Below are positions 357 through 35,100 of a stretch of DNA of 64,000 bases, in pieces. The notes under the pieces were generated by a model. The model saw only the letters and a list, made by a program, of their open reading frames with translations, was not told the DNA's origin and searched no databases. How positions within the stretch are numbered: the first letter of the stretch is position 1; each line of letters starts with the position of its first letter. The position numbers and the translations under genes were made by a program. The DNA is from Yuukianura sp. NJ FZ-2021 (Eukaryota): NCBI GenBank assembly GCA_046563655.1, contig CM102285.1, forward strand, positions 12,152,001-12,216,000. Direction: 5' to 3'.

Positions 357-1586
357 TTATAATTCGTCGTGTTTTGGACCAGAGAATTCGTCATGTGTGA
401 TAAACCCGTTCTTGTCTTGGTCCTCATGTTGGAAGATCTCTTCAACTAATTTATCGTGATCTTGGAGAGCCTTCTGAACTTCATCGTTCAACTTGTTCTC
501 GTCGGTGTCCATTGAATTCATTTGTTTCTTCAGGTAGTCACTAACCTGTAAACATTAACAACAAAAATTGGTCAATTCATTCCTAGCGATTAGCTAAGCT
601 ACACCAACCAACGCGGTAAATCATGGCTGGGCTTCTACTCTTAAGTTTTTTAAACTGATGAGATTTCATACCTCGTCTCTGGATAATTGAGAATCGTCAT
701 TGGTATCAATTTCTTTGAATACGTTTACAACTGGTGGAGCAGTACTGAAATTTAGAATGAAACAACATCAGTAACACAGACCTTACGACAAATTTAAGTA
801 TTTAGGTTAAATTCTGAACGTCTTACTCGATTTTGAGCAATTCAGTTTCGAAGTAAAGTGTGGCATGTGGGGGAATGACTTCTCCGGCACCATGATCACC
901 TGAAAAGTGAACAATTAATCAGTAATTCACGTCAAGTTCGGTTGTGAGACCATGTGCGTTCATGTTAGGCATTGACATGGTAAATATTATCAACAAATTA
1001 CCGTAGCCTAGATGAGGTGGAACGATTAATTTGCGCTTCTCGCCAACGCACATGTCGAGTAAACCTTGGTCCCAACCTTTGACAACTTGACCAACACCAA
1101 TTTGAAAACTGAAAGGCTGATTCCGATCGTAACTGTGTAAATATAAATCAATTACCTAAGCCAACGCATCATCAGTAATTAAATTCTGTAATTTGGTCCG
1201 AAAGCTAGGATATTGTTCTCAATAAAAATAGATTCCACAACTGGAGTACATCCGAAAAATGAAAACTAATTAAATTCTGTAGTCTTTCTTGCAAATTATT
1301 TATACCTAGAATCAAATTGCTTCCCATCTTCAAATGTTCCCTTGTAGTGCATACTTAGCAGTGCGCCTGCAATTTCAAAAACGTAAAATCAAGATCGTTA
1401 CGCCAAATATACGTTCAGTCAATTATAATAATACGCACCTTTCTGAGATTTGACATCACAGTTATCAGGTTTGAACAATACTTCAATTTTGAGTTCTGGT
1501 AAATCCTTGTCAGCCGTGTCTTCATTTGCTTGGACAAGCGCTAAGGCCACGACACATATGAAACCAAAAACAGCTGGAAGATTCAT
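357..1586 (-). CDS. FKBP14: ER-luminal FKBP-type peptidyl-prolyl isomerase with EF-hands (FKBP14/FKBP7-like), ~224 aa, 6 exons
   Basis: Exons 1586-1439, 1366-1306, 1132-1002, 899-827, 744-672 and 545-357 join in frame (675 nt) via GT-AG introns. The product has a signal peptide ([20 protein letters not shown]), FKBP motifs ([55 protein letters not shown]), two EF-hand-like loops ([24 protein letters not shown]) and a C-terminal HDEL-stop. Confidence 0.93.
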
Positions 1587-6552: not shown

Positions 6553-9500
6553 ATGCCGACGTCAATTTCAATGGAGGAGGCTGCACTCCTGGGGTAAGAT
6601 GTTTTTTGAAATGCTTGATCCAGTTTTCTGCCGATGTTTCTTTTTGAAAATACTGCTGTGACAAGTTTTGAATAATTTTCGAGTTAATCCATCTGGATTG
6701 TTTTTGGCTTTGAGCTTTTGCAGACTGACGATGAGTTCCTTACTACTGTTTTCCATTATCATTGTTCCAAGTTGTAGAATCTGCTTTCACCCTGAATTTT
6801 AGACAATCTGAATTTGGATTTGGTCCAGAAGGGGATGATAATCAAAAGATGCGTTTTGAACAAGGGGAAAGTCAGATATTGATTATTTTCAGCCCCTTCC
6901 TGCTGCTGAATCTTCGTTAAACTGAATTTGAGTCACTCGATTCTTTTTAACTTATTTACTTTTTCGTGAGTTATTTTAACCTTGATTTTAATTGGAAGGA
7001 TTTTCTGTAAAGTTGTAAAAACTTCCCAGTTCCCACAATAGTTATTTTCCCAGTTTCCTGGAAGTTAAGCTTTCAGTTTCAACTAAAAGTAGAGAATGAG
7101 ATTTTAACTGTACCTACCTTTAGAAGATACTGGCTGTAATTTTCCAGAGATTTTCTATTTCGGTTTGTTCAGGAACGTCTGAGATAACGTTAAGACTAAC
7201 GTAGTGATTTTTAAATTCAGGGCACTTCTAGACTATTTTAGGATTCTTGTAAATCATTCCCTCTGACTCTCTCTCTCTGACTGGGGACTGTTTAACCAGT
7301 TTCAAGTACTTCACAGATTACTTAACTTTACACTTTTACTGATATCAACTAACTGCAGTTGAATTGCTGGAATTGATTTTCCTATTTAGTACTTGTCAGT
7401 ATTGTGATGGAAGTGGTGGTGATGGTGATGCGGAATACTGTTGCTTAATTTGCGGCTTTCAGTTGAATAATTTGTAATTTGAGGAAATTCTTACGAATTG
7501 TTCTTTTCTTTTGTCATTTCGTTTCATATCTTCTTCACACTTCAACTAATCCACTTGGTTTTTCGGGTGTTGGTTCTTCGCAAATTCAATTTCTCATTAT
7601 GGCCAACGACGTTACTCACAGCACTCAAGCTTTTCGGTGATTTTTCATGTTTTCTTGATTAATCAATTTGCTTTATAGAAACTTAGCATTTTTAACTCTT
7701 GATTTAGTAAATTCCTGAAATTATGAGGTGAGGGCGTTCCCGCAAGAAGTTGTAAAACTCAAAATTTCGTTTCTAAGGAAAGCAAATAAAATGCGTATCT
7801 CGGAGTTTGTTAGAAAATTGGTAGATGAGAGTATCAAATCCACAATTTTGAGTTTGCAACTTCTTACTCGAACGCATTCATTTGATTCTTGTGATTAATT
7901 TTTTTGCTGTGTAATTTTGAAGGTGCAACCCGTCTGAGAGTATGGACGAAGTGGAACTGAAGAATATCCAGTTGTCATTTGCATCGGCAAGGACACTGTG
8001 TCGTGGACAAGGACTGGCAACTGAAGAAAGAGTTGAAACGAAGTTTGGCTCAGTTCTGGTCGGAATTCAAGGAGATCGATCTAAACCAGCGATTGTGACC
8101 TACCATGACCTCGGTCTTAACTGTAAGAAAAATTTAAATCCAAATGATGAATTGAATTCAAAAACCTGTTTAAGAAGTCACTGACTAACTACTTTCTTTT
8201 GTGCTAATAGATGTTTCCAACTTCCAAGCATTCTTCAATTTTGTGGACATGAGATTACTCCTGCAAAACTTTTGTGTGTACCACATCACTGCGCCTGGAC
8301 AAGAAGAAGGAGCAGCAACTTTAGCTGAATCGTAAGAGACTTAAAACTGCAAAAATAATATTGACTGAGCTTTTCAATCCAACGAAGATAACAATGAGCA
8401 TGTGGAAAAATTTGCACAAGATAAAGTGGTTTTACAACAGACAAACAGAGATTCTCAAAGTCCTCGAAAAATGAAAATTCCTGTGAAACTGCATTTTGAT
8501 TTGATCAATTTTTGAATTTTGCTGCAGATATGTCTACCCAACGATGGATGAATTGGCTGAACAAGTTTATGAAGTGGTCACTCATTATGGAATCAGACGC
8601 ATAATTGGATTTGGGGTTGGAGCTGGAGCAAATATTCTTTGTCGATTTGCCTTGACCTACCCGGACAAGGTGTGTTTTTTGAAAGCATTTTTCAAAATTT
8701 TGAGTTTTAAGTTATAATTTGCTTTGATTTTGTTAGATCGATGCACTCTGTGTGATCAATTGCCTGTCAACAGCAACTGGCTGGATAGAGTGGGGATATC
8801 AGAAGTTGAACGCAAGACACTTACGAACCAAAGGAACTATGACGCAAGGCGTCAACGACTATTTGATGTGGCATCACTTTGGAAATGTAAGATTTAGAAC
8901 TAGAAAGTATTGATGAAAGTTTTGAAAAGTTAGATGTAGATTCTGACGTTTCCTCTTTTCTTGAATGATTTTCGTAGATGACTGAAGAACGAAATCACGA
9001 TTTGACTCACGTTTATCGTCAATACTTCGAAACGCAAGTGAATCCAGTCAATTTGGGTTTGTTCATTGACAGCTACATTCGTCGAACAGATCTTGACATA
9101 ACTGTAATAAGAGATCTTACGAGAAAATTGATGCTTCCCGAACGAGAATCTAACAAATTGAAACTTTTCATAGCGCGAGTTGGACCCAATGAGAAAGAGC
9201 GATGTCCGTACGATTCGCTGTGCGGTTCTCAATGTCACTGGAGCGCTGTCTCCCCATGTCGATGACACTGTCACTTTCAACGGACGACTAGACCCTGTCA
9301 ACTCCACTTGGATGAAGGTATGATTTTAAGATTTTGGAGCAGACATTTCTAAAATTGACCAATTTCAGATTCAAGATTGCGGAATGGTCCTGGAAGAACA
9401 ACCTGCAAAACTCTCGGAAGCGTTTCGTTTGTTTCTCCAGGGCCAGGGATACGGTATGAAAACATTTAAATTCTACCAAGCTTACATTTAGTTTCATTGA

Positions 9501-10616
9501 CTTTTTCGTCTGGTGATGCCTTTGTAAAGTGAATTTTGTATTCAAAAGTTAAAACCGATTTTAGGATTCTCATAGTTACTTTTTTCCACTAAAAACGGTA
9601 AAAATTGATCTTAGGTTTTAATTTTCTGTTCTTTTTTCTCGATTCTTCTATTTCTTCTGCGATTCTCGAAAAAAAATGTACAGCTATAAAACTATTCCGG
9701 AAGAATTCCTTACCAGAAGGTAAATGCTTCTAAAGACAGCCAACGGGATAATGGGAGAGACACTGCTACTAAAGTTTAAAAAAGTTAAATTCTACAACAA
9801 ATTTTGCATTCATTATGTTGTGTAAGTCTTTGATTTGCAAAATATTCACATTGAATTTGTTGAATTATTCTCTGTGCTAAAAAACGTTTGCTGCTGGGGA
9901 TAAAGCTCAAGTTTTCTTTTTGGGTAAAAACTTTCAACTGCTTTTTGAGAGGTTTTGGGTTTTGGCTTTGTCTGAAAATTACATTACATAATGGATGCGT
10001 GAGTTTGGAAAGCTAGTGATCTTCTTTTTAAATTAGATTCAATATTTTGAATTTTAAAGGCTTTTGCTATGTTATGTGCTTACGGCAATCTCGTTTTGCA
10101 ATTTTTTTAAAAATTGAACTCGCTATTTTAGAAAAATTGAAACAATGGACAATCGCTTCTTGTCTGCTGCTTCATTTCACTGCTCTTTTCTGTCTGTTGT
10201 CACTCACGAATGAAATGTAATTTGAATTTAAGTGAAAGGAAAACTAATATTTTGTTTTTTGATTTCTAGTTCCGTGCCTTTCAAGTCAAAAAATTGCAAT
10301 GAATCGTAAGATGTCTGTTGACAGTGGAGCTGGAAGTAGTTCCACGGCTGGATCTTCTGGAAGTCTTAATGCATTTTCAGCCCCAAAGTTACAACCTGCA
10401 AGTGGAATCCTCATTCACTTGAACAGTGACACGCGTAGTGACCCCATTCTGGAATCTGGCAATGGATCTCCAGGAAGTTCAGATTCTGGACTCACGAATG
10501 AACCGGACACGACTCTTCTGGATCAAGGAATCAAGAACATTCATATTACGGAGAACCCAATTTCAGAATCCAAAGAACAGTTAGATGTGGACGCTCAAAA
10601 TAATCCAAAGTGTTAA
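6553..10616 (+). CDS. NDRG: NDRG-family alpha/beta-hydrolase-fold protein (NDRG3 / Drosophila MESK2-like)
   Basis: Exons 6553-6593, 7923-8122, 8211-8331, 8528-8669, 8737-8886, 8978-9103, 9174-9317, 9369-9453, [9684-9719] and 10270-10616 are frame-consistent (1392 nt). Motifs include PAIVTYHDLGLN, APGQEEGA, YPTMDELAEQV, IGFGVGAGANIL, GWIEWGY, WHHFG, RRTDL and DCGMVLEEQPAKLSEAFRLFLQGQGY, followed by a Ser-rich tail. Confidence 0.92.
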
Positions 10617-11394
10617 TCGCAATTTGAATTCCAATTTCAAACGTGGAAGGTAAGCTCCAAATTTAACTCACATAAAGTCTCCCAGTGAAGATCCTGCTGA
10701 AACGTACGAACAAATTCCAAAGTTACTTTAGGCATCTTTAAGTGTAGGCTAGGCTTTGCTCCGCTCCTTTGTCAACAAATATCATCTCTAGTGCTAAAAT
10801 TCGGTAAGTTGTTGTTCTTGCAAGTTTTTAGAAGTTTTAGCATGAAGGCAGAGGAAACTTTAGTCTGTTTTAGTTTTTAGAATTTTAGATGTTTTAAGCA
10901 ATTTTAAATTAGAAACAAGGCAAAGTTGTAACAGTAGGTTGTTATTAGGTTGAACAGTACAAGGGTATGTATTGCCCTACGTAACTTTTAGCAGCGTACT
11001 AATACAATTAGTTAACTATATGACTACAGTAGATTTGTAAAAGTCGTTGCGCTGTGGTGTGGTCAATAATTTAGTGTTAATTCCTAGAGTAATTGGACTT
11101 TTTAGAAAGACTGAGTGAGCGGTAGGAGTAGCACATCTTTAGGTTTGGCAAGATGAGGATACTTGGTAAATACTTCCTAAAAAACTGTTGTTGTTGATAG
11201 CTTTAGTTTTCCTTATAGATGCACTCTCCGCGGCTTGGGTGACGACAGGACTTTTTGCAACATTTCTAAAAGTTACGAACAAATGCAAAATTTTAAACTT
11301 CTACTAAAAACGGAAGTAAATTATGGGTTGTTCGACTTACCATTTTTCTAAATTCAGTCCATGCTCGAGTCCTGTCCTGTCCAGCTTGTTTCGG

Positions 11395-14108
11395 TCATGT
11401 CACAAGGACTGCTGTCAGTAACCGCGGTGCGGGCGGTGGTTCTGGAGTACTGCAGTATGTGTCGATGTAGTGTTGCAGTAGGAGAACGACACGGATGACC
11501 GTGGTAGCGTGACCTTTGTTGCCACCAACATGAATCCCCTTGTCGAATATCCCGAAGTATCTCAGCAGTCCAGCTAGCTTCTCTATTCTACTTTTGCATT
11601 TAGTCAGTAGCTTAATCTCCCAGGGATCATCTTCGGTTAGCTTGGCTGGAGTAATTTCTTGTGGAAAAACTAAGAGTTGAACTTGTTTAGCTAAGCATTC
11701 GTTTCCTACATCAAATTGTTGTTCAACAAAGACTTCTGAGCCTTCTGGAATGATATCCAACACCTTGCTGTCCAAAATTACGTCTCGATCAGAAGTAGTT
11801 CCAGGAAATACTGATGATATGAAAAATATTGATCCAGTAGGTGAGCACAGGAAGAGGATCTTGTACGTTGGAGATGAAGATTTAGTTGGATTTGTCTTGA
11901 CATGAGATTTTGAAGTAACAAAAGTTACGTGATTCTCTAATCGGATTTCAACGACACGAAGTGCTGCATATAATTTAGTGTAATGTGTTTGTACAATCTC
12001 TGGTAATTCGGCAAATTCTTGTACATAGTCGTATTTCTTCAGAAAGAGATCCACAAGATCATTTTCCATCAGTTTAGAAAATGTTATGAAGAGGCAGGAA
12101 ATGTAGGTTGGATCACAGTTGTAGAAAAATCCAAGTTCTTTGGTAGCAAATCCACGTCGGTAGCGTGCAAGAGTTAGAAACAGTCGATTCTTGATATCAA
12201 TTCTACTTGATTTGACTTTCTTTTGTCCAGGAGGATTGGCTGTCCATGACTTTCCATTCCAGTAACTCATTTTCTTGGCATTTGGTTCCAGAAGGGAGTA
12301 GAATTGATTAAAGTCTTGTACAGTTGGAATTCCTGTGAAATATTTTATCCATTCGTTAGATTCGGAGCAGGTTTCAAATCGTAAAGTTTTAGACAGAAAG
12401 TCTGAAGGAAGCGACGCTTCTGGAGGCGGTGGAACTGCTGAAATTCCGGCTTGTGATGAGGAACAGGCGGAAATGACTGAACACATAAACTCGGCTTGGA
12501 GTTCATTGAGGTGCTCGAGTTCACCGTTGCAAAGTTTAGCAAGAGATGAATTGGCTTCCATCAGAACTCGTTTTTCCTCGGTCCATCTTGTTTGCAGAAG
12601 AGATAAGTTTGAGTTGGCTTCGTCCAGAATATTTTTAATGTCGGCTTTCCGATGCTCGTCGTATTCTGCTCGGATTTTCTTTTCCAGCTCAAGACTAATA
12701 GCATGCTGGGATTTTTCGTTTCCCTTGATTTCCTTAATCTCCTTCTTCAGTTCTTCAATCGCCTGATTCTTGACTTGGTTGTTTTTAATCATCTCCAGCA
12801 CTATAATTACAAAATACATAGTAAAAACCTAATGGAAGTTGTTTTAGAGCGAAGCATTTATGTATTTTATGTAGGTTACCCATTCTCTTCTCTTCAGCTT
12901 TATGCTTTTTGACAAGCATCCTCTCACGCCGTCTCCATTCTACTTCTAGCAGTGAGTTTGGATCGTCGACCGGAAGTGTTTGGGACTCCGGCTGATTGCC
13001 TTCATTTTGTTGTGGGTTGCTTGCTGTGGTGTTATTGGGGTCATTTAGTACAAAATGTTGATTTGTATCAATTACATAAGCTTCTACGAAACCCTCACAG
13101 TCGGGATCGGGAGCAGTACTAGTATGGGCAGAGTGATCTAAAGAGCCGGGTTCAGCGGTCGTGGGCGTGATACTGGTTTCGGTTTGACATTCCATTTCGA
13201 TTTCGATGACGTTGTAGTCCTCCTGGAACAGTTCTTGCTCAGGTTCTTGAAATACTGCTGGTTCTTCGAAAGAGGTTTTCCGATATTGGCGCAGTAGGAT
13301 ATCTTCTCCAACAGTGTCTTCCCCACGAACACAAGAATCAATTATTTCGTCGACATTAGTTCTTTCCACGACTCGAGGGAGAGGGATAACCACGTCTATG
13401 GGTGATGTATAGGATTCTAAATTCGCCGAATCACAGTCTGGCTCAGTAGCATCGGTATGAATACAGTCTTCCTCTTCGTCCAAAAATGAAGCAGTGATAG
13501 CATTAGGGTCGTCTGGAAGAGTGTTGTCTTCGCCTTCCACAACATTGGTGCTAGTGTCAATATCTGAAAAGAAAATCGACACAGTTATACTGTTTTAGAG
13601 AATAGATTGTGCTTCCATTATGTTTGTACAGTTAGACGAGCCCACCTTCAGCTTCTAGTTCAACAGTTTCAGCTTCGATCGTTTCTAACAGTTGATACAT
13701 GTCCGTCTCGCTGAATTCAACATAAGTGGAAGTTGCGGGTTCAGTACTTTCTTGCTCTTTGACCTCACATTTACAGACTTTTCGCCTACAGCCGGAACAG
13801 AACTCGCTGTTTTTGGCAGTGTTATACCAAAAGATATTTGGAATGTAATCCACATGTGATGGTTTGTAATTCCTCCTTCCTGTCTGAAAATGCTTGGAGC
13901 AGATTCTTGTTCTCTCAATGGGAATAAAATTAGGTCCTCGTCCAATCTGTGCCACCCATTTTCTCATCAGTGGTTTATCGGCTGGGAATTTGTACAGCTT
14001 GACTCCGTCATTATTATCATCTTCTCCGAACGATTGTTTTTCAGTGCTGTCGCAATGCGGTACGCAGCATCTTAAAACTCTCCTCTTCCTCTTCTTTACA
14101 GGCGGCAT
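11395..14108 (-). CDS. THAP zinc finger + acidic linker + coiled coil + HTH + degenerate Harbinger/ISL2EU-type DDE (DDE_Tnp_4-like) protein, ~850 aa, 3 coding exons; probable domesticated transposase
   Basis: Exons 14108-13646, 13563-12880 and 12800-11395 join in frame (2553 nt; both introns GT-AG, phase 1). THAP signature: CCVPHC...LYKFP...W...ICSKHF...IPNIF. The C-terminus follows the ISL2EU/Harbinger transposase pattern (YFTGIP, RLFLTLARYR, ELGFFY, TYKILFLCSPTGSIFFISSVFPGTTSD, RIEK). Confidence 0.85.
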
Positions 14109-15747
14109 GATAGAGATCGAACCAAGTGGCCTGACATAAGATAACAATAATATTTTATTTGCAAATCATCTAACCAGGATTTTCGGATTTGCCACATCTA
14201 AAAATAATTAGTGTAATGTGTAGTTTGCCCAGCAATTACCGGAAAGGTTGTTATTTCGTTCGCCAGTACTATTTCTGTTAACAATTTAGCTTGATTTTCT
14301 TTACGTTTACTTAGGTAAGTAATTGTTTTGTATGTAAAAGTTAAATTTTTGTTTTTGCTTTTTTAGTTTTTGTTTTTTAGAAACCAAAATATGTACTACT
14401 AATTTTGAACTACGCGGGAGAGGATTTTGCACATTCATATGAAAAAAGGTGAACAAAAGTTTAATTCATTTGGTACGAGAGAGATGTGATTGGTTGATTT
14501 GATTGATTTGTGGTATTGTGGTAAACTGTTTTGAAAAATCTGTTTTATGACTCATTGTTGTTGTTTTTAGTGATAAAATTTTAGTGAGTGAAGAGTTTTA
14601 AACGAAGGGTAGGCAATTTGCTTGACCTACTTCTGTGTCTGTGTTCCGAAAAGGGAAAAGCTAGTCATTTCAGATTTCAATTCCTATTGTGTTGTCTTGT
14701 AGAAATCGTTTGAAGTATTGAAGATCCTCGCGTACAAAGTTCATTTTCGACTGTTGGCTGGGGTTCTCATATCGTGATATCGTATGGGACTATGGGAGTC
14801 TGACAGACAATCGTGTATTACTGAGTGAGTCTGTACAGTAGTCAGACCGCCAGGAGAACTTATGTTGTAACATAGTTGTCCTGTCACGTCACCACCATCT
14901 TTAACTTCACCGCTAGTAGGGAAGTCATCATCTGGTGATTGGTGGATGACTGTTGTCCAGTCGTCTCCGCGATCGGGACAAGAGAGGTCAAAGGTAACAT
15001 TTCATAAACCTTGTCAGCAAGGTTTCTATAGCAACGGTTGCTTCATAAGGTTAAGCAATAAGTCTTGTTTTCCAAAAATCTCGCTCCAAACTTTTTTTTC
15101 ACCCAAGTTTCACCCAGAGTGAATCAGAGTGAATGTCTTGCCGTGATGTCTTTTCATTTTTGCAATTTTGGAAGGAAAAATATAAAAACCGAGGTATTGC
15201 TTAACCTTATGAACCAAGAACTATTCCGTTGCTATAGAAACCTTGCTTGTCAGTGTCATTACGCTAAATACTTAGTGCAATGTGTACTTTATCTTTAAGG
15301 ATATGTGAAAACTAATTTTACTTTGTTTTTATTCTAGCAGCCAAGAGAAGACTTTCCTCAGTTCTAGTTGCTCGCTGGATGTCGTAAACCTGCTGATGCT
15401 GGTGGCAGTTTAAGAAGTGAAAGTCGCTGGAGACTGTGCAGAAGACCAATCGATATTGTACTACTTTCGTGGTGCCTCGGTAAGAATTTTAGTCCCGCAT
15501 TGCTGTAGTACGCCGCTGCATACTGAGGGCGAGACCAGTTCGTCGGTCTTCGTGTCTTCGCTCTCAAATATTCTTACCAAAGCTGTAATACCAGTTTCGT
15601 TTTCTTTTCTCAAGATTTTGCTTCTACTATTCATTCAAATTTACGGTACACCTACACCAGAGCCTAGGACCAAGGGCGTTGTCTTACTCTTGAGACAAGA
15701 AGGGTTATCGTCGTCTTCAACGATCACTGGCTTCTAAATCATAGACG

Positions 15748-18700
15748 ATGGGGTCAATGTTTCGAAGCGAGGAAATGGCTCTCTGCCAGCTCTTTCTGCA
15801 AAGCGAAGCTGCCTATGCCTGTGTTTCAGAATTGGGAGAGCTGGGATTGGCTCAATTCAGAGATGTAAGTTCAAAATTCAACAAACATAATGCTTTTTAG
15901 ATTTAAGCTTATGTTTTGTTTAATTTAGCTAAACCCGGATGTCAATATATTCCAACGGAAGTTTGTCAATGAAGTGCGGCGGTGTGACGAAATGGAAAGG
16001 AAACTTCGGTATTTGGAAAAGGAAATTAAAAAGGATGGGATTCCGATGATGGACTCCGGAGAAAACGTAGAAGCTCCGCAGCCAAGAGAAATGATCGACT
16101 TGGAGGTGAATTATCAATAATAACTCCCGTTTAATAGTTTGATGATACGTACTAAAGGAATATCTCAAGCATTCACTTTGTTCTAGGCAACTTTTGAGCG
16201 TTTGGAGAACGAGCTGAGAGAAGTCAATGAAAACTCGGTGGCCCTGAAAAGAAATTTTCTAGAGCTTACTGAACTCAAGCACATTTTGAGGAGAACGCAA
16301 GTATTCTTTGATGAGGTAAGTACGCTGATGAAACTATCTTCTCCCTGCGATGACATATTGGTCGTGGTCTACCTCTGCTTGGCTTTGCTTCATTCTTTGC
16401 TCACCACAATTATGGTTTTCGTAGAATGGGCGGACTTTATTCAATATTATTGCTTATTATCACCTCTTTAATTGCATTTTGATTTCACTTTGTTTGTATT
16501 TTTTATGTTTCTTCCATATTCTTTATTTCCTTGTTTCTGAATATTGGATTTTGATGCCTGGCCTGCAATTTCCTGTGATCCTGTCTGATGCATTGTATAA
16601 TTGGTTCCACTGAACTAATTAAAATGGAGTTAGGTTGATTATAATTACTGTCATAACGCCTACTCGTACGCTCAGATGGCTGATCCCAGTCGGGAAGACG
16701 AGCAACAACAATTGCTTGGGGAAGAAGGGCTTCGAGCTGGTGGGCAATCGCTAAAGCTGGGGTAAACTTTCTTCAAGCTTAACTAACAGCAAACTAATTA
16801 TTCTAACTAATTTAATAATTAATCACTTGAACTTCTGCTAATTAAGATATTTCGTCAATTAACCTTTTGTCATTTAGAGGCTTTGGTTTTCTTGTGCTGG
16901 GTTATCTGAGGCACATGGTGAATTAAGTCATTGAGTGTGAATGAGAAACCAAAAAGCAACGATGTTCATCAACTAACACTATGTTTCGCTGCATGAATGT
17001 TATACGTTTTGTAATCAGACTATCCTATCCATGATTTATTTTTATTCGTTTTCTTAAAAATATGATTCATGAAGCGAGTTACTGAAAACGGAGACCATAA
17101 CCTGATTGAAGACGAAGTTATGTTCACAAGGCTGGGACTAAGCACTCTCACATCAGTCCGTGGTCTCGGGTAACAGATTAAGATTCTTCGTTGCCTTATA
17201 TAACCCAAGAGCACAAGGAAAACCAAAGTCGCTGATTCGCACTTAGCATGTAACTTACGCAAGCGTTTAGAAACTAATTTTGAATTACTCGTTTCAGGTT
17301 TGTGGCCGGCGTCATTTTGAGAGAGAGGATTCCAGCGTTCGAACGTCTTCTCTGGAGAGCTTGTCGTGGAAATGTGTTTCTCCGGCAAGCGGAAATTGAC
17401 ACTCCATTGGAAGATCCCACGACTGTAAGTACAGAAACAGGAATATGAATAACAGATTTACTTGCTGCGGATTTGTGAGATCTTGTGATTTGTAATTTCA
17501 GGGGGATCAAGTGTACAAATCGGTATTCATCATCTTTTTCCAAGGAGATCAACTGAAGACAAGAGTGAAGAAGATCTGTGAAGGATTCCGAGCGACATTG
17601 TATCCTTGCCCGGAGACACCAAATGATCGACGTGAAATGGCTGTCGGCGTCATGACTCGTATTGAAGACTTGAACACTGTAAGATGGTGCTATATTTTTT
17701 CGTGTTAGTTTTGCTCATGCTCAAGCGATGACTCATTCTAAAATCTGCCCTTTCTCTACTGCAGGTCCTAAGTCAAACTCAAGATCATCGACACCGGGTA
17801 CTTGTCGCTGCGGCAAAGAATATCAAAATCTGGTTCACGAAAGTTCGGAAAATCAAAGCAATCTACCATACTCTGAATTTGTTCAACTTGGACGTGACCC
17901 AGAAGTGTTTGATTGCGGAGTGCTGGGTTCCAGTGTCGGATTTGGAAGCAATACATTTGTCCCTCCGCCGTGGCACTGTACGTGTTCTAAAAAACTAGCA
18001 TTATCGAAGAGTCGAACCTCGGAAAATAATTATTTTTGTTTGTCCGGTTTACAGGAGAGGTCTGGAAGCAGTGTGCCGCCAATTCTGAATCGAATGGAAA
18101 CTCGAGAGACGCCACCAACGTATTTTCGGCTAAACAAATTCACCAAGGGGTTCCAAAATCTTGTGGACGCTTACGGAGTGGCAAATTACCGGGAAATCAA
18201 CCCTGCTCCTTATGCAATAATAACGTTTCCATTCTTGTTTGCCGTGATGTTTGGAGATTTTGGACATGGACTCATCATGACACTCTTTTCTGGTTGGATG
18301 GTTCTCAACGAGAAGCCGCTGATTGCGAGAAAGTCTGGTGGAGAGGTATGCTTCCTGGCAATATTAGTTTAGTACTTGAGTCAACTTTCAGGACATTTCG
18401 TTTGCTAGATCTGGAACATATTTTTCGGCGGACGATACATCATTCTGCTGATGGGATTCTTCTCGATGTACACGGGTATCATCTACAACGACTTCTTTTC
18501 GAAGTCCCTGAATCTCTTTGGCTCTCAGTGGTCTGCAAATATATTCGATGGAACCTATTTGGAAAAGCAAACTCAGGGAGTCATGTTGGATCCTAATGGC
18601 ACGTACGCTGGAACTCCTTATTTCATCGGACTTGATCCAGTTTGGCAGGTTTGCAGTTAGTTTTACTCTCATCAGTCAGTTCTATTAGCACTTAACTCCT

Positions 18701-20028
18701 TCAACACGGAAAAGTTTACTTTTGTTTTCATTTTGTTGGTAGGTGGCTGAAAACAAGATCCAGTTTCTCAACGCCTACAAAATGAAGGTGTCCATCATCA
18801 TCGGAGTCATTCACATGCTGTTTGGAGTCGCAATAAGTTACTGGAATCATAAATTCTTCCAAAAGAAAATCAACATCATTTGCGACTTCATCCCTCAATT
18901 GATCTTCATGATATTCATTTTCTTCTATCTCATCATTCTGATTTTTCACAAATGGACCTCGTATCATGCTAAGGGGGGTAAGTAGTGAATTTGAAACTTT
19001 CCATGTTGAAAATTAAATTTTGCTGTTAACTGTTTGAATTACTTTCAGGAGTGGAAGCTGGACCGCACTGTGCTCCCTCAGTTCTCATTCTTTTCATCAA
19101 CATGGTCCTGTTCAAGACGACAGAGAAAGTCGGCGACTGTGAACCATACATGTATGCGGGACAAAATGGATTCCAAAAATTTCTTGTAGTTGTTGCATTC
19201 GCTTGCATTCCTTGGCTTATGTTTGGAAAGCCATACCTAATCTACAAGCATCGGCAGTTGGCGCACATGAAGGTAAGCAATACTTTGAAATTGAAGAGTA
19301 GAAGCATACTAAAACTAGGAGTTTCATATTCATTTTCAACCTGTTTTTCTCCTCGTTTCAGATGAATCTGGCTGACGGAATTAACAATGATGGAGATCAC
19401 TCTCAGATACAAATGAGCGACGGAGGAATTCCATCAGCGTCGGAACATGACAATGAAGAGTTCAGCGAAATCATGATTCACCAAGGGATTCATACCATTG
19501 AGTACATTCTGGGCTGTGTCTCCAATACTGCATCTTACCTACGGTTGTGGGCCCTGAGCTTGGCTCATGCGCGTCAGTTTCAATTGGGAATCAGAACAAA
19601 TTAGCGTTGTTTTAATTCGAAGTTCGAACCTAATTTTGTGTTTCGGATCTTGCAGAATTGTCAGAAGTATTGTGGTCTATGGTGATGCGAATTGGACTTG
19701 TACAGCCGGAATGGTATGGTGGAATTGCACTGTACTTCATCTTTGCAGCATGGGCAGGTCTCACTGTCGGAATTTTGGTGCTAATGGAAGGACTGTCTGC
19801 GTTCTTACACACGCTACGTTTGCATTGGTAAGGAAAACCGGGTTTATACTCTAAAATTGTGTTCATCCTATCTAACCATTTCACCTTCTTCGTAACTTCT
19901 TCATAACTATTTGATTCTTGGACAGGGTTGAATTTCAAAACAAGTTCTATTGCGGACAAGGCTATCCCTTTGCACCATTTTCATTCGAGACAATTCTGGA
20001 AGCAATTGGAAGCGCTGAAGGGGAGTAG
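15748..20028 (+). CDS. ATP6V0A1: V-type proton ATPase V0 subunit a (116 kDa; Vha100-1/ATP6V0A1-like), ~833 aa, 14 exons
   Basis: Exons 15748-15864, 15929-16105, 16187-16315, 16676-16761, 17298-17424, 17502-17678, 17765-17977, 18055-18345, 18409-18648, 18743-18977, 19049-19272, 19362-19572, 19656-19827 and 19926-20028 total 2502 nt. Hallmarks are [61 protein letters not shown] and [15 protein letters not shown]. Confidence 0.97.
17075..17169 (+). CDS. Candidate mutually exclusive alternative exon of V-ATPase subunit a
   Basis: AAG|CGAGTT...CTCGG|GTAACA, 95 nt, open ([32 protein letters not shown]). It has the same 0-to-2 phase and the same LG ending as exon 16676-16761. Confidence 0.6.
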
Positions 20029-20678: not shown

Positions 20679-22278
20679 ATGGGGTCAAACATGGAAATCG
20701 ACGCCTATGTCCGGGAAACACTGATCTCAGCAAATGTAAGATTTACTTTAGTATCGTATATTCTTTCATGTTGACTCTTAAGTTAAGAGTCTTAACTGGA
20801 GATAGTTTTTATGTTGTTTCATTGTTTCACTGTGAAGCTAATTTGGCATATCAATTTTGTAGTATAGGGACGTGGAACGTGTCCGGCAAGATGTACTGGA
20901 AGCAATTGCCCAATATCCTGGTCTCCAGCCTCAAAGGGATACGTACAGTAAGTTGTTGACCGATTGATTGTTATTAAGCATTCTAATTAATTGAAATTGG
21001 AGTTGTGACTTTATTTATTGGTATCTTGTAGTTTACATGGATGGGACTGAACAGCTACTGCTAAAACTGACTGGGACGTTACCTGTTAAATATAAAGGTT
21101 GGTTTTTGCGTAACTAACAAGCGTAATGTCAGCAGTATTAACGAAGCATGACCAGTTTCAGGAGTTCTTACACAGTATTGTAATTCCGTACAAATTGATG
21201 TTCTAGGAAATGTGTACAACATCCCTCTTGACATGTGGCTCCTGACTACATATCCGTACAATGCGCCCATGGTTTTACTGTGCCCGACACCAGAAATGCG
21301 GATAAAAGTTTCACAGAACGTTGGGCCTGATGGTCGTGTGAAGTTGCCTTACATGCAAGAATGGAATCATGTAATCTTGACGTTCATCAATTGATCATCA
21401 TCGCATTGTTTTAAACTAGAGTCCTCTAAAACTAAAGTGTTCAAACTTGTTGTATTGCAGAATTCGTCGGAATTACTTTTGCTGATTCAAGTTCTCATAA
21501 TCACATTCCAAGAGGAACCTCCAGTATACTCAGTTCAACTAAGTCCACCGTATCCGTTGTCTCCGTATAATTTACATTCCGAAACCGAACAAGTCTTCGC
21601 ACAAGAAGCTCAAGCCAGTTCTAACACTGGGGGACTCTCTTCAGAACGCTTCGAGTTACTGCAAACCGCAGCGGGTCGGCTGTTGCGTAGACTGCATCAA
21701 CTTTACGGTGCGTCTTGTGTAGAACAATGGGTAAGTACCATTTAAACTTAAAGACTTGATGACATTCATACAGAAAGTGTGTATTGTTAATTTCTTATGT
21801 TTATAGAACTACGAGCAGCTACAGAGGGGAAGTGAAAAGCTAACGCGGTTGTCGGAACGGCTAAAAGAAGAGAAAGAGCAGTTGTTAGAGACGGTGGAGA
21901 CGTCGGAGAAGGAACTCGTAGATCTGTCGTCCAGTCTAATCGTTCACGAGGCTGACATAGAAGATCGTGAAGCAAACATAGAAGATTCAATAGTAGCTCC
22001 ACGACCACTTTTTCGACAGTAATTATTCCAGTTTGAAATGATGACCATTTTTTCGACTAAGTAAAACGGATGATTTACTGTACTTTCTTTTCAGAATCGT
22101 TGAAATACACACGGAGGAAAGCGCCATCCAAGATGCAATTTACTTTGTCAGTGAAGGGTTACGAGCAGGACAAATGGAGTTGGACCAATTTGAAAAGACA
22201 ATTCGGAAGCTAGCCCGAAAACAATTCATGCTTCGATTACTGCTTGTGCAATGTAGGGAGAAAGCTGGCTTGAAATAG
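20679..22278 (+). CDS. TSG101: TSG101/Vps23-like ESCRT-I subunit (UEV + coiled coil + steadiness box), ~345 aa, 7 exons
   Basis: Exons 20679-20735, 20863-20947, 21032-21097, 21207-21370, 21461-21730, 21807-22018 and 22095-22278 total 1038 nt. UEV motifs are LTGTLPVKYKGNVYNIP, WLLTTYPYNAP, GRVKLPYMQEW and FQEEPPVYS. The C-terminal SB region reads PLFRQIVE..EESAIQDAIYF..IRKLARKQFMLR..CREKAGL. Confidence 0.88.
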
Positions 22279-26079: not shown

Positions 26080-29018
26080 TTACTTGAGCTGGAACTCAGC
26101 TAAAAGAGGGTAGTGGTCCGATGGTGACGCAAAGTTAGGAAGGTGTCCCAATTCTTTGCATTCATTTTTGCTCAAAAGTCGGAGACGTCGAATGAGTTTT
26201 AAGCTGCCTTCAACCCGTTGTCCATCGGCAGGATTGGATTGCATCCCTTGAAAAATGTAGTCAACGCACTTCCAGTTCACTTGACGTGTCGTGGCTACGC
26301 TTTCTCTGGTCTCCTTCCGGTCCAAATGTTGTTCATAGACGCTTCTGAGTTTGAGGTCATGCGTCAACGTACCAGTTCCAAAGGAGGAAGCAATTCCCAG
26401 TTTCCGGATTTCATTCATCGCTTCTTCATGGTTATCTGTGTCGGAGTTTTGGATTGTATTCGGCCGTGGAGTTTCTTGATCCTCGTCGACGGTTTTGGAT
26501 GGGGCAGACTTTGGTGGACCGGTGACACCTTCAGATTGCACATTGATCAGGGCTAATTGAGTCTTCCTGTCCAGTTCAGCTGGACCACGATTCTGTGATT
26601 TCCACTGCTTCACGCGTTCCAGGTGAAGCTTGTAGTGTCGACATTGGTCATCAATACCAACGGTCATAGGGAGAAAATTATCCATGTTTTTGTTGCTGAA
26701 CACAAAGTACACTGATGTGAAACAGCAGCATGCCTTTCAATTAATTAATCATAAGATCTTACTGAAACACTTTAGGCGCAGTTCCTCCATGCTTATCCAA
26801 ATACCGTAAGCTTCCATCTGTGATGAGAGTTGCGACTGGCGAATGCGGTTCTGCATTGAAATCACCACACAACAGTGTTGGCAAGTAAAGTGATTCTCCC
26901 TGACGTCCGAAACCGGCAAAACTGAATCGATCCAGTTCGGCCAGTAAAAGCTGCACCTGAGCCAACCTTATGTCCTGGAACACACAAGTTATATCAAAAA
27001 CTAATGAAACGAACTTCCTAGTCAGATCGGAAAAATTCACGTACGGTTCGCTTAGGATTGTAGAGCAGATGAGTGGTTGCGACGACGAGACGTTGTCGAC
27101 TTCTACCGGACTTTGGTTCGAGTTTGAGCATGAGGGCGACATTGTCCCTGTTCAACAGGGGAGCATGACCCTGACGAAGATCCAACGCTAGCTTACCAAC
27201 CAGACTGAACATGGATCCGTTCCAGAAAATGGCACAGCCATCAGGTTTACCCCCTGAACGTCGTTTGAAGGCACCGCGATACCCTGTTATTACAGAGGCA
27301 ATACACATCATGAGTCCTCAGTCAACTAGTAACAACACCTTTATATGACCAATTCCAGCTTACCGGAACGACTGAAGGCGGGTGTGAAGTTTTGATGAAA
27401 TTCAGACTCCTCCACTTCCTGGAGGCAAATGATATCCGGAGTCATATCACTGATTTCCTTCAGCAGAAGGTGAAATCGCTCGCTCCACTTTAAACTATCA
27501 GGATCACAATTTCTACAAACAAAAGAATCGTCAATTACAATTTCTGTAGGAAGAGGGTAAGAACTTGCTGGAGTTACTTACTTGTACAGATTCATATGAT
27601 GTTCCAAATGCTCTTGTGCCAAAATATTGTAGCTGAGAATACTAAAACGAGTTCCGCCTGTTGCGTGATCACGATCCGATTCACTTCCAACAAGTCGTCC
27701 AAGTGTCGTGTACTCCCAAGTTCGTAACTCACGCAAACGATTCTTCAACGTCTTCGCATCAGCTACACTCCAAAGTAAAAATGTTCGCTCAATGTTTGGA
27801 TTTTACAGTTTGGATTTTTGCTCAAACGTACCAGCCGTCGTCACGCTCGTGTCACTTGACGAAGCAGTCGGAGTAAGAGCTGGACTCTGGTCGTTGTCGT
27901 ACTCGTAGATCACACGATCACGTGGGTTTTCCCAGCCTCTGTCCTCTTTTCTTGTAATGAAAGCCGTTGAGAATTGAGTGGCCAACTGATTAGGCGTTAC
28001 GGCTCCCATTGTTACTCGGGACGGTGGATAGGGATACGCTGTATTTGGAGCCTGGTATAAAACTCGAGTTGCCTGAGAGTACGAAGTGTGGAGCGATCGA
28101 GATTCTTGGAATCCGTAACTTTGGCTTTCTGATTGCATTGAGCGAAGTAAGTGGCTCGGAGCATCCAACAGTCGGGAATTCGCTGAAATCAACAACATGC
28201 CAGAATCAGTTTAAACTAGTGCTTACGTCAGCAAAACAAATAAATTCAGCTGATCAGCCGTAATGATTTTTTTGCAATCTCAAGTACGATAATCTCTTTA
28301 ACTTACTGAGAGGCCGATGATATCTAGGAGGATTGGAAAGCATGGTTGTATTGTCGTAGGGGTACGGCTTGTGAGTCGGTCGTTTGTAAGTTGTACTTGG
28401 CTCCCGTCTGTAGAATGGTCGCGTTTCGTTCCCGTAAGTTCTGCTTATTAGAAACGGAGTAGCTATTGGCCGATTTTCAAAAGAACTCCAGTTTCCGCCT
28501 GGGACTAGTTGACCTTGGCCTCTGCTTCCAGTAGCTACCCGTGGCGGGGACGGTGGTCGTGCTTGTACTACAGTGTTTCCTTGCTTGATTAGGAATAACA
28601 TTCCATCTTCTCTCACGTCTCTCAAGACTTGTCGTTCCCGTCCAGCAGGACCAGCATCACGTTCCCGACGTAATGCACTCTTTAGTCGGCCACCATTTCC
28701 ACTCCGTTGAGCAATTGGAGGGGATGCAGGTCGTGGTGAAGCGTTGCCTTTCCGGCTCGTCAACACGTCGTCGTTTATACTGTCTTCGTAGATCGGTCCT
28801 CTTTCACTGTAGGTACGTTCGTCTCGGTTAAATGAACTCATGAGTTTGGTTTTCTTCCGAAACCGAAGTGGTGGACTTGATCTAGCTCTTCCGGAATCCA
28901 TAAAAGATGAATAGGGACGCCGGAAAGCAGGGTACGAGGTATGGCGATGTAACGAGATCACAGATGACCAGACTACTTTTGATTTTGTACTGTACGCGAC
29001 GATTTTCTGTTGGATCAT
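26080..29018 (-). CDS. angel: Angel-family (CCR4/nocturnin-like EEP) RNA 2',3'-cyclic phosphatase with long N-terminal extension, ~819 aa, 7 exons
   Basis: Exons 29018-28307, 28182-27832, 27762-27582, 27512-27364, 27283-27045, 26974-26763 and 26695-26080 total 2460 nt. EEP motifs are SYNILAQ, DIICLQEV, KPDGCAIFW, RDNVAL, VVATTHLLYNPKRTDIRLAQ, LCGDFNAEP, VDYIF and PSDHYPL. Confidence 0.9.
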
Positions 29019-29601
29019 GCCATTTGAAACCTCCCTTCTACCCTGAAATTAAGAATACGACAAAATCTTGTTAATTTTGCAGTTTAATTTAGAGATTTAG
29101 TATTTTGATAACCTCTCAGACCATATTTAATTTTGCTTACGCAATCTTTGACGACGAGATCACTGATGAAACGCTTATGCCAATACTAATGCAATTTGGA
29201 CTTTAAATTGAGTAATTCAAATCATTTTCTCACCTCTCGTTCCGCTTCCTGTTGTCCTCAGTCGATTGGCTATGCTCTATAAGTTCTCCTTCGTCATTTG
29301 TGCCCTCATTTCGGCAAGGTGTTGTTTATGTTTACATTGGGGGCTTTCACCGTTGCGAAAATCAATTCAGTATCCCGGCCGACACATTAGCCCGAGTCAT
29401 CTTCGTCTAAAATATTAAAATGTTATTGCTGAACAAACAATTAAATTTTGATTGACATATGAGTACCTGAGAGCGTTTTAAAAACGATTGGAAGCGTTTA
29501 CAACACGAACAAATTAGAAAAGAAATCGTTTAAAAAGTAACTTGTTTCTATTGGTTTACAGTGCCTGCTGATTTGGGTTTGGTTCCGTGTTGAAAATTTG
29601 T

Positions 29602-32184: not shown

Positions 32185-35100
32185 TTAAGTATAAGCAGGT
32201 TCTGGTGAGAAAGAGTGTCCATTTGCCATAAAAGATGCAAGCAGATTCCTTTCTTCATCGGTAAGTCCATGACGAAGTGTTCTCCTCACTGTCAAAATAA
32301 AATAAATTAGTTAGTTTGATAATAAATTAATTAATTTAAACCCAACTTAAGTTATTTTTTAAATCAACCCTCACAAAAATCAGTTAGACAGCCCGAGTTA
32401 TGTGATTCTACGACTAACTAGAACATTCCGGCGTTAAAAACGATCATGCAACAACAAAAATGCGACAAAACAGTTGCTTTCACGTTATTTCACACGTAAA
32501 CCACGTCAATTCAACGAAAGTGAAAATTCAAATACCAGAGTTCTTATGACATTTCATTTTAAAATGGCAGCATAAAGAGCAGCTTCAGCAGCATTATTTT
32601 CTCTCGTTCGTGATCTCTTCACTTGTCAAAGACAAATGATCGTTTGGAATCATAAACATGGAGGACAAAAGACAATATTTCTGATAAGCATATAATTAAA
32701 CTTGGGAATGATATGAAAAGTTAATTTTAAATCGAACTTACAGGACTTTCGGTCCGCGTAGCGTGAATTATTTCGTTTTCGTTCTCTAGGAGCCATGCGA
32801 GTGGCTGGAGTAGAAGTGGCAGTCTTTACAAGGCTCTCCAGGATTTCATCGTGTCCATCCCCCGCAAGTCCTCCAGTTCGGCTAAGAGTAGCAGCCTTAT
32901 TTTGAAAATTGTTTTGAATCACGTTACTGGTATTTGAAATTGGCGTTTTGGATCTTCTTGTCCAAGTGAGAGAGGATCCTTTAGCAAGTTCATCTCCAGC
33001 ATCGTTCGAAGTATTCAGAACTTGGCGCAACTCGGCATCAGCTCGGTCTTCCTTTGTTTTGTAGATTATTTGCTAAATAGAATAATTTTTAGGTTTAATT
33101 TCCCATATTCACTTCGATAATGTGTTTAAAATTTAAAGCCATGGACATTCTGGACTAACCTCAGTGATTAATTTTCCACGGGTCTTGTTCCTTTCTCTAT
33201 GATTTGCTTTCTTTTGTAGCTGCTGAAGAACGCGTTCTCGAGTAGTTCGATACTCCAAAGCAAATTCCGAAATAATTTTGAAGAGGTAGTGAGGTTTGGT
33301 TGTTGGAACTTGATGTGCAGAAACTCCAAGCCATAGTAAAAATTTATGAAATCTGTGATACAAAATAATTCAAGGTAACTTTTTAGTTCATGTGCTGATG
33401 TTTGCATTATGAGAATAGTATACTGTAATTTTGCTTTTATCAGCAAATAGTACATATTAGTTGAACGCTCACTTTACCTATTCATAACACGACGATTGAT
33501 AATTCCTAGCACAATTATTCTCTCAGCACAATCCGCCAAAAATTCAGACATCCTGAAATTCAGAAACATTTAAGATCCAAGATTCTTAGACTTTAAAGTT
33601 CAAAACAGTATGCCCAACTTACTTCAATTTCATATTCGTTGGTCCATCATGTTTGGCAATGAGCTTCAAGTAGTCCCACGATGCTTTACAATCTGCTTCC
33701 ATTTTTACCAAGTTTCCTGCAAGTTCTTCAAAATCTACTCGAGATGCTCGTGTGACTGGTCCGATCTGAAGGAAAGCAAAAGTGCGATTAATTGTTTAGC
33801 CACTTGATTTAATTGGCGTTTGATTCCGCCAACTCACTTCTGAGTAGAGATCAGTAGATTCTGGGAACTTTTCAATGACGGTGTGACAAAGGTGATGAAG
33901 TAGTGAGTGCTTGTGAACAGTGTCCTTGACCTCGGGGACTTTTGCGAGATACTCAATTTGAAATCCCTTGGCATCTCCTCCGTTGAGAAAGTTTCCAATG
34001 CAGAGAAGCGTCGTCAGAATGCATCGGAATGTTTTATTCGATTGCAAAGCCTCGATTCCTAACTTTAAATCCATGAGCGGTTCTCCAACTTCCTGGAAGA
34101 TCAATTTATAAGTTAATAATTATTGTGTCTTGTAATGCCCCAATTGTTTTTCCATTTTTGTACAAACCTTTTCTAAATTCTCATAATCCAGTTTGAAGGC
34201 CCAGAGCTTCAATCTTGCAGTCAGTTCAGAAATTGAAGCTAGAGTGAGTAGGAACTGTTCAGCGCTTCCCAACGGCGTATCAGGCTGAAATTAAACGAAA
34301 AAATTTGAAAAGTTTCTGCAAACTTCCGAAAATTCAAAATTGAAAAAAAAAACTCACATTCGCAAATTGAGCCTCTTGGATTTTCGCCCTCTCTTCATCC
34401 GTCGGTAACATTGTGAGGAGTTTCTGAAAGTTGAGTGGAAAAACACAACTTCTTAAATTAAGATTTCTTAAAAAAGGAACATTTTTGAAATTAATGAACA
34501 CATTCACACCTCAATTCCTTCACGGTTGATAATTGTGGAATCCATCTTCATGATCGCAGTCTTGATGGTTCTCGGGGGAGCGAGTTTGGTCATTCCAATG
34601 TTAATGGCATTTGATCGCTTGGGGTCCAGCACAACTACTTCCTTGAACTTGTTCACATCTTGCTGCTTCTGTAGATCAAATTAATTTCAAAATTAAACCA
34701 AGGAAAGTAACCTTACAGGAAGAAAAAAGCTCCAAGTTAACACAGAATAAGGCTGACACTGACAAGTGACACTTAGCGACGAGGATTCATATTTTTTACG
34801 GAGATTAATTTAAGTTTGCTCGTAAATTACATAGAATCACTTTTGTTGTAAAACTGAAATCCACATTTGGGTAGGTGTAAGACACGGTTATTTAAGGAGG
34901 ACAAACAGACGACACAGGGGGAACTTCCCGTTACCCGTTAAAAAACGTATAAAGTTCAGTTAGACACGATTTGGACAACTTTAATTTGAGCAAACTTTGT
35001 CACATTGTTTTGATTTACTCACCTCCTAAGAAATTGTCGCAAATGTGTCGGCATTATTAAAAATTTTCCCAGAAGAAATCCAGAGAAGCATTTTTTGAAG

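Follow-up and report, generated by a model that had tools for sequence, protein, structure and literature searches.

A THAP-DDE gene with a broken catalytic triad in Yuukianura, a candidate domesticated ISL2EU-type transposase

Domesticated transposases are a recurrent source of DNA-binding regulators, RAG1, HARBI1, ALP1, THAP9 and PGBD5 among them, and most of the well-documented domestications come from vertebrates, flies and plants and, within the PIF/Harbinger-ISL2EU-Spy (PHIS) superfamily, from PIF/Harbinger proper. Here we describe a minus-strand gene (11395 to 14108) in a 64,000-nucleotide (nt) stretch of the genome of Yuukianura sp. NJ FZ-2021 (GCA_046563655.1, contig CM102285.1, positions 12,152,001 to 12,216,000; the window) which, like the ISL2EU (IS4EU) transposases of this superfamily, joins a THAP, a helix-turn-helix (HTH) and a DDE_Tnp_4 domain in one protein. 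It is probably a single-locus animal host gene that comes from an ISL2EU-type transposase, is no longer a transposon and would work as a THAP-directed regulator. In excerpts of PMC4482050 and PMC4122938, the ISL2EU transposase is described as carrying DDE, HTH and THAP domains in one protein, and the elements as having a second open reading frame (ORF) with a YqaJ exonuclease, AT target-site duplications and terminal inverted repeats (TIRs) of 6-259 bp. Unlike them, the gene has R/E/E at the D/D/E triad, two spliceosomal introns, of which one keeps its position, a fixed neighbour and a signature of purifying selection, and no TIRs, AT duplication or YqaJ ORF were found in our scans of the window; it also differs from its ISL2EU relatives by a clade-specific Cys cluster and by the lack of a [DE]HxY motif.

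According to excerpts of PMC4671723, Arabidopsis ALP1 has DGA in place of the DDE triad, is present in 1-2 copies, is immobile, has a conserved intron and acts as an accessory of Polycomb repressive complex 2 (PRC2). Compared by description, the gene in the window resembles ALP1 in being a DDE_Tnp_4-type transposase turned host gene with non-conservative triad changes, and ALP1 offers the closest functional parallel to a dead nuclease domain serving as a protein scaffold; unlike it, ALP1 is a plant gene from PIF/Harbinger proper that has no THAP domain, leaves DNA binding to a separate Myb-type partner and has lost other triad positions. HARBI1 differs from the window protein in lacking a THAP domain, in having an intact triad and in working with the Myb-like protein NAIF1. 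Excerpts of PMC5753468 present HARBI1 as a domesticated gene of Harbinger transposase origin, conserved throughout the jawed vertebrates.

With cellular THAP proteins such as THAP11, THAP1 and THAP2 the window protein shares an N-terminal C2CH THAP domain and with THAP9 the combination of THAP and a transposase-derived RNase H-like domain, whereas human THAP1-8 and THAP10-12 lack a transposase domain, and THAP9, whose source is the P element rather than DDE_Tnp_4, is reported to be catalytically active. The Drosophila DPLG genes are said, in the work of Casola et al. from 2007, to be domesticated PIF-like transposases, an example of repeated domestication of the PIF type; they belong to another lineage with a PIF rather than an ISL2EU source, and we know of no THAP fusion among them. 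Excerpts of PMC10027918 list 788 candidate transposon-derived factors, including Hydra THAP+DDE_Tnp_4 and Crassostrea Harbinger-THAP proteins, which are called 'potentially TE-derived' (TE, transposable element) and are reported to have no one-to-one homologs in the closest species; neither synteny nor the catalytic triad is analysed in these excerpts. No published domesticated ISL2EU gene was found in the literature searched, the supplements of PMC4482050 and PMC10027918, which could list relatives, aside. We regard the gene as a new member of a known phenomenon, the domesticated transposase gene, from a branch so far unrepresented in the searched literature.

Gene structure and the broken catalytic triad

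The three exons of the gene (14108-13646, 13563-12880 and 12800-11395, minus strand) lie in open frames at 13632-14165, 12785-13594 and 11395-12828 and, when joined by coordinates across two GT..AG introns, give a coding sequence of 2553 nt, that is 850 amino acids (aa) and a single terminal stop without an internal one, in keeping with the initial annotation, which had proposed that three ORFs join via two canonical introns into a frame of ~850 aa. Exon 1 (13646..14108, with the ATG at 14108; 154 codons plus 1 nt) encodes a basic N-terminus, the THAP domain, the Cys cluster and a short acidic helix, exon 2 (12880..13563) an acidic, fast-evolving linker in which Pfam recognises no family, and exon 3 (11395..12800; 467 full codons plus the stop at 11395-11397) a long helix, an HTH region and an RNase H-like pseudo-transposase domain. 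The transposase layout is kept whole in this protein, in the order N-terminal THAP, linker, long helix, HTH and RNase H-like DDE_Tnp_4 domain. Intron 1 (13564..13645, 82 nt) has the donor G/GTGGGC after 13646 (GT at 13645-13644) and the acceptor TTTTCAG/ before 13563, intron 2 (12801..12879, 79 nt) the donor G/GTAACC after 12880 and the acceptor ATTATAG/ before 12800; both acceptors are pyrimidine-rich and both introns are in phase 1. When full-length proteins of more than 818 aa were sought, none of 7998 candidates reached E<=0.001, a null result that counts as weak evidence.

A search of 1.84 billion cluster representatives with exon 3 returned 911 sequences at E<=1e-3, 130 at E<=1e-10 and 3 at E<=1e-30. 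Five close relatives (P0001-P0005), obtained with a word-indexed search, are 51-67% identical to exon 3, carry no protein names and all begin at its equivalent, and the homology to transposase-like relatives spans exon-3 residues ~138-446, with E down to 1e-25. In Pfam scans, the next hundred relatives (P0006-P0105) contain DDE_Tnp_4 in 100/100, HTH_Tnp_4 in 100/100 and THAP in 37/100 cases, the last figure being a lower bound because many of them are fragments or single-exon calls. Exon 3, scanned like the other exons as a separate protein, matches DDE_Tnp_4 (PF13359) at E 3.8e-9 (36.8 bits versus a cut-off of 24.8).

We aligned the exon-3 protein with P0001-P0005 and the next 115 relatives (121 rows) and found that the triad is broken. 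In place of the first catalytic Asp, which binds metal from strand 1 in RNase H-like enzymes, stands an Arg (R281 of exon 3, R664 of the full protein; 11956..11958, minus strand), in a column that holds D in 110/121 rows and R solely in the query and its five close relatives (6/6 of the group). The second catalytic Asp is replaced by Glu (E359, or E742; 11722..11724, minus strand) in a column with D in 112/121 rows, at which the six members of the group read E, E, D, N, D and D, the Asn belonging to P0003. The third triad residue (E406, or E789; 11581..11583, minus strand) is retained; all six members of the group have E in this column, as do 100/121 rows overall, 16 others being gaps. All three assignments had been made by eye in the initial annotation and stand on proper alignment: the intact D-D-E triad required of an active ISL2EU transposon is absent, the site reads R281/E359/E406, and the D-to-R change is common to all six orthologous members. 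In the AlphaFold2 model described below, R281 lies on strand 276-287, E359 directly after strand 355-358 and E406 inside helix 392-414, which is the arrangement described for PHIS transposases in excerpts of PMC4482050. The ability to cut or join DNA would thus have been lost, with Arg in place of the metal-binding Asp on the first core strand and the second Asp free to vary (E/D/N).

That the protein is instead an active nuclease or recombinase with a non-canonical site (E359, E406 and further conserved acidic residues, for instance E284 or D337), used by the host for programmed cutting or still mobilising a non-autonomous element, we consider very unlikely. Two of the three triad positions are acidic, E284 (E in 118/121 rows) and D337 (D in 120/121 rows) are conserved and conservation in the protein peaks around the site, as such an enzyme might have it, but a positively charged Arg occupies the metal-ligand position in 6/6 members, the Asn of P0003 argues against a catalytic requirement at the second position, E284 and D337 are family-wide structural invariants rather than new acquisitions, and ALP1 shows that a pattern of this kind goes with loss of activity.

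The RNase H-like, DDE_Tnp_4-derived domain (11452..11973, minus strand; exon-3 aa 276-449) is the most conserved part of the protein. AlphaFold2 modelled exon 3 from the 121-row alignment with a mean predicted local distance difference test score (pLDDT) of 83.4 and a predicted template modelling score (pTM) of 0.68, in an RNase H-like order of strands (276-287, 311-318, 324-332, 355-358 and 374-377) and helix (392-414). The DDE-like domain that had been claimed earlier, as full-length, is borne out by a DDE_Tnp_4 match above the cut-off and by the modelled strand and helix order, the profile being matched only at positions 23-142 of 158. With VIA-align, the top chains were the ISCth4 transposase (Z 9.7; 215 residues aligned at a root-mean-square deviation of 4.7) and piggyBac (Z 9.5), followed by piggyBat and Tn5 (Z 8.3) and retroviral integrase cores (Z ~7.9), a Z of 7-8 being the usual best score for models without a clear match; the long helix drew non-specific helical matches (Ndc80/Nuf2, Z 8.4; SYCE3, Z 7.5). 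Foldseek against the PDB gave no match at E<=0.001, its weak top rows being DDE transposases and integrases, and a sequence search of the PDB with exon 3 gave rows at chance level (best E 0.18). These structural scores lend moderate support and are consistent with a retained RNase H-like fold.

Descent, selection and position of the gene

A tree built from the first 70 rows of the 121-row alignment (IQ-TREE quick search, LG+G4) unites the six sequences in a single clade with a Shimodaira-Hasegawa-like approximate likelihood ratio test (SH-aLRT) value of 100. The stem of this clade measures 1.31 substitutions per site and its end branches 0.10-0.35, against a tree-wide median of 0.59, which, as far as branch lengths tell, is a burst of change followed by slow evolution. 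The sister of the clade (SH-aLRT 100) is P0006, which is 32% identical, has an intact D-D-E triad, a full DDE_Tnp_4 match of 125 bits and a full HTH_Tnp_4 match, and is predicted as 404 aa on a single 3132-nt contig. P0006 may stand for the transposon family that gave rise to the gene, or for domestication at an earlier stage. The gene is probably not a HARBI1 ortholog. Its clade, with P0006 as the sister, falls within a set of THAP-bearing relatives, and the THAP fusion together with this sister argue for an origin independent of HARBI1 and ALP1, both of which were compared by description. The nearest ESM Atlas clusters include the automatically named 'Putative is4eu-1 dr' and 'Protein ALP1-like' (0.92), names that serve as leads only. 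The protein appears to be ISL2EU-like in lineage and architecture, a label that we take from the published architecture and the Atlas cluster name.

In a metagenome scan we obtained two related loci, L001 (63% identity) and L002 (51% identity). In the window, the last coding exon of an NDRG-like gene (ORF 10263..10616, plus strand) lies tail-to-tail with the THAP-DDE gene and serves as synteny anchor, and the last NDRG exon is likewise found in L002, 1.36 kb downstream on the opposite strand and again tail-to-tail (L002 ORF 3204-3593, minus strand, versus window ORF 10263-10616: 50% identity, E 2e-29). The contigs of both loci stop short of the upstream side, where the window has its V-ATPase gene. 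Intron 2 sits at the same codon position and in phase 1 in the window and in 2/2 related loci, and the frame of exon 3 and of the end of exon 2 is also open in both.

Over 447-455 codons, non-synonymous divergence (dN) was 0.26 between window and L001, 0.40 between window and L002 and 0.35 between L001 and L002. Synonymous divergence (dS) is saturated (about 2.2-2.3 by LWL85, while NG86 and YN00 give no estimate), so the LWL85 dN/dS ratios of 0.12-0.17 overall and 0.09-0.14 for the HTH and DDE part (three pairs) are rough; they are not near 1, and the intact frame is under strong purifying selection. Constraint is unevenly distributed: mean pairwise identity among the six orthologs is 0.49 in the helix (1-113), 0.25 in the linker (114-145), 0.67 in the HTH region (146-262), 0.71 in the RNase H-like region (263-450) and 0.14 in the C-terminal tail, and it peaks at the dead site, with 0.86 for aa 265-290 around the mutated first Asp and 0.85 for aa 388-420 in the helix of E406. 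The strongest constraint in the protein thus falls on the dead catalytic core, which argues for a selected, non-catalytic role of this core.

These data leave next to no credence for a functionless, immobilised transposon copy or a gene-prediction artefact, that is an old insertion whose frame stayed open by chance. The exon model was read from DNA alone, and the DDE_Tnp_4 match is degraded (36.8 bits over part of the profile versus 125 bits for P0006), as a relic would have it, but the 850-codon frame is open over three exons, exon 3 and the end of exon 2 are open in two relatives at saturated dS, the intron position, the start codon and the neighbour are conserved, and constraint follows the domain structure.

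A bolder reading, which we entertain only tentatively and consider doubtful, is that the gene, old and fixed in position, is the first described domestication of the ISL2EU type, in which the whole transposase was kept and the active site was rebuilt, not decayed, into a pseudo-nuclease pocket with a new selected role. Rebuilding is suggested by the Arg that every ortholog has in place of the metal-binding Asp and by the strands and helix around it, which are conserved more than any other part. The pocket could then recognise, without catalysis, a DNA structure, an RNA structure or a partner protein; the HCF-1-type motif of the ancestor would have disappeared, and the Cys knuckle would be a new acquisition (see below).

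The same pattern of constraint bears on the possibility, in our view unlikely, that the gene is a genome-defence factor, a dead transposase that represses active ISL2EU elements by occupying their ends through THAP and HTH or by forming inactive mixed oligomers through the helix, much as the THAP-only KP repressor of the P element, the precedent that it would resemble. The DNA-binding modules and the helix were kept while catalysis was lost, and the sister P0006 with its intact DDE triad indicates that related, possibly active elements existed in the same broad gene pool. However, repressors tied to one family are expected to evolve fast or to vanish once that family dies, whereas here the THAP exon is 64-67% identical and the core 0.71 identical between orthologs despite saturated synonymous sites, and conservation is highest in the pseudo-nuclease core, for which a repressor that simply occupies ends would have no need.

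The surroundings of the gene were also scanned for the marks of a transposon. Between 10600 and 15200 there are 13 short inverted-repeat pairs of 12-21 nt, and no credible TIRs or AT duplication were found there, although very short or decayed TIRs would escape the scan; the sole pair that flanks the gene (11174-11185 / 14372-14383) was rejected as TIRs, being 12 nt long, A/T-rich, with one mismatch and 1/13 comparable pairs. Among 144 of the 147 stop-to-stop ORFs of at least 75 aa in the window, none matched YqaJ, THAP or DDE at E<=0.001, a scan that would miss small exons; the remaining three ORFs are the gene's own and were scanned separately. No second copy of the gene was found in the 64-kb window by tblastn and blastn, and the 90% clusters of the close relatives have 1-2 members on 1-2 contigs each, a weak proxy for copy number. 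The initial annotation had proposed an ISL2EU-like transposase turned host gene that lacks TIRs, target-site duplications and a partner ORF, and had named synteny and dN/dS as checks. The scans found none of these transposon marks, NDRG synteny was recovered in a locus of 51% identity, and with the loss of the triad, the conserved intron 2, purifying selection and a single copy in the window, all refutation tests that could be run favoured domestication, which is thus supported.

DNA-binding and interaction modules

The THAP zinc-finger domain (13869..14069, minus strand; aa 14-80 by Pfam), which is followed by a YIPNIFW motif at aa 88-94, matches PF05485 at E 2.8e-13 (50.9 bits versus a cut-off of 23.9). 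Three orthologous THAP exons from three different sources (P0154-P0156) are 64-67% identical to exon 1, and across these four the zinc ligands C14/C15, C19, C70 and H73 are invariant (4/4), as are the start Met, the Trp in RKWV and the IPxIFW motif; P0154 also keeps the end of exon 1 (..E-x-x-GG). A profile of the four exons finds the solved THAP domains of THAP11 (2lau, E 3.6e-11) and then 2jm3, THAP1 (2ko0) and THAP2 (2d8r), so that the C2CH THAP domain is intact, as had been claimed. The AlphaFold2 model of exon 1 from the 4-row alignment (pLDDT 44) was too poor to use. Their equal divergence and the conserved exon end suggest that, in the other species too, the THAP exons P0154-P0156 and the DDE exons are parts of one gene.

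Directly after the THAP domain lies a clade-specific Cys cluster of the form CxxCx4CxC (C104-x2-C107-x4-C112-x-C114, FCSGCRRKVCKC; 13767..13799, minus strand), which is invariant in 4/4 exons and was not seen in THAP-bearing transposase relatives in one alignment inspected by eye. It may be a second zinc knuckle, peculiar to the clade and gained after domestication, that would bind zinc.

The linker that follows is acidic (residues 151-385: 24% Asp/Glu versus 6% Lys/Arg), in agreement with the acidic linker of ~250 aa noted at the outset. Exon 2 is 34% identical to L001 over 151 aa (E 3e-17), in conserved islands, and its tail is a basic stretch, EWRRRERxLVKxHKxEEKxMG, directly before the donor, that is kept in L001 and L002. 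One island within the linker, RGEDxVxExILRRQYR, is kept between the window (12881-13561, minus strand) and L001 (1-456). It could be a short linear interaction motif.

Exon 3 opens with a long charged helix (12460..12795, minus strand; exon-3 aa 2-113), 34% charged and free of Pro, that AlphaFold2 models as helices 2-24 and 31-113, the latter continuous, with pLDDT in this block mostly 80-92. It is a candidate coiled coil or oligomerisation element, and a coiled coil is plausible on the model; excerpts of PMC13631171 state that THAP proteins commonly dimerise through a downstream coiled coil. The HTH_Tnp_4-like helix-turn-helix (12061..12201, minus strand; exon-3 aa 200-246) follows, at the place where HTH_Tnp_4 aligns in 100/100 relatives.

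In cellular THAP proteins the HCF-1-binding motif takes the form [DE]HxY. Of the transposase-like relatives, 96 have 60 aa or more ahead of the HTH-DDE core, and in 31 of these we observed the motif, for the most part 55-110 aa upstream of that core; when the N-termini were shuffled, on average 1.5 and at most 5 of the 96 contained it. Unlike typical THAP proteins, the window protein does not contain it, the nearest candidate being DHSA at aa 297 (codon about 13218-13220), which we rejected as an HCF-1 motif, as it lacks the Tyr and is out of position. According to excerpts of PMC13631171, the HCF-1-binding motif of THAP proteins is placed near the coiled coil. ISL2EU-type transposases may recruit HCF-1, a link that the host gene would have lost.

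As a THAP-directed regulator of transcription or chromatin, a role that we assign by analogy, the protein would be a sequence-specific DNA-binding factor in which THAP reads the major groove and the HTH probably helps. It would associate with itself through the long helix, and the acidic linker and the conserved pseudo-nuclease domain would offer interaction surfaces for transcription or chromatin partners. The use as a scaffold is modelled on the catalytically dead, Harbinger-derived ALP1 within PRC2.

Weight of the evidence, neighbourhood and implications

Several observations weigh against a domesticated, catalytically dead regulator or against parts of this reading. At the active site, the acidic residues E284, D337 and E406 are conserved, the second triad position is still Asp in 3/6 members so that only the first Asp is lost in all six, and a Glu at the second position can bind metal; for these reasons, the inactivity of the enzyme is a strong inference. 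Synteny is readable in one of the two related loci, L001 ending 615 nt past the stop, and L001 and L002 share a collection prefix, so they may be paralogues in one organism. Copy number is established for the 64-kb window alone, the THAP exons and DDE exons of other species lie on different contigs, and the exon model is a prediction from the DNA. Two of the modules score low in their own right. The HTH_Tnp_4 match of exon 3 (E 0.0022, 18 bits) is under the Pfam cut-off of 27, and because of this the HTH assignment is based on alignment with the relatives; the HTH region named in the initial annotation thus holds by its alignment with the HTH_Tnp_4 of all hundred relatives and falls short by its own score. 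For the coiled coil that had also been named, the model supplies the long helix 31-113 and periodicity is weak: Fourier power at period 3.5 was not above that of shuffles in this helix, and windowed a/d occupancy was modestly above shuffles in four sequences (0.088, 0.032, 0.008 and 0.066 of shuffles reach the observed mean). These heptad tests are weak, and therefore we do not claim the coiled coil as proven.

The gene lies between two housekeeping genes, as had been noted before. On its downstream side are the Ndr-family exons (7921-9262, plus strand; Pfam) that precede the last coding ORF of the NDRG-like gene, and the 778 nt that separate the NDRG stop from the stop of the THAP-DDE gene contain no AATAAA or ATTAAA on either strand. 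On its upstream side, a V-ATPase subunit a gene (15748..19601, plus strand) lies head-to-head with it, with the start Met at 15748 and V_ATPase_I exons at 16187-19601; seven ORFs match this family, with eight hits at E<=0.001, one of them below the Pfam cut-off. The start codons of the THAP-DDE gene (14108, minus strand) and the V-ATPase gene (15748, plus strand) are 1.64 kb apart, and the two genes may share a bidirectional promoter region within 14109-15747.

Beyond these neighbours, the wider context consists of ordinary animal housekeeping genes. The Pfam families detected in the 144 other ORFs are host families only (FKBP_C, Ndr, V_ATPase_I, UEV, Vps23_core, FH2 and FH3_FHOD1-3), and include an FKBP_C exon (922-1155, minus strand), a TSG101-like gene with UEV and Vps23_core (21152-22275, plus strand) and an FHOD-type formin with FH2 and FH3_FHOD1-3 (33799-39329, minus strand). 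The long ORFs at 26083-27317, 27806-29048 (minus strand) and 35462-36982 (minus strand) have no Pfam match at E<=0.001; the last, of 507 aa, probably holds the proline-rich region of the formin.

If the gene is what we propose, an ISL2EU-derived, constrained and positionally conserved host gene, it would add to the known domestications a branch of the superfamily for which none has been described in the literature searched. It would also be a natural single-chain counterpart of ALP1/HDP1 that joins the DNA-binding domain to the dead nuclease, and what a dead RNase H-like domain does could be tested on it directly. The practical gain is modest: the gene would be annotated as a host gene and not as a repeat to be masked, and it would provide a defined candidate for binding and interaction studies.

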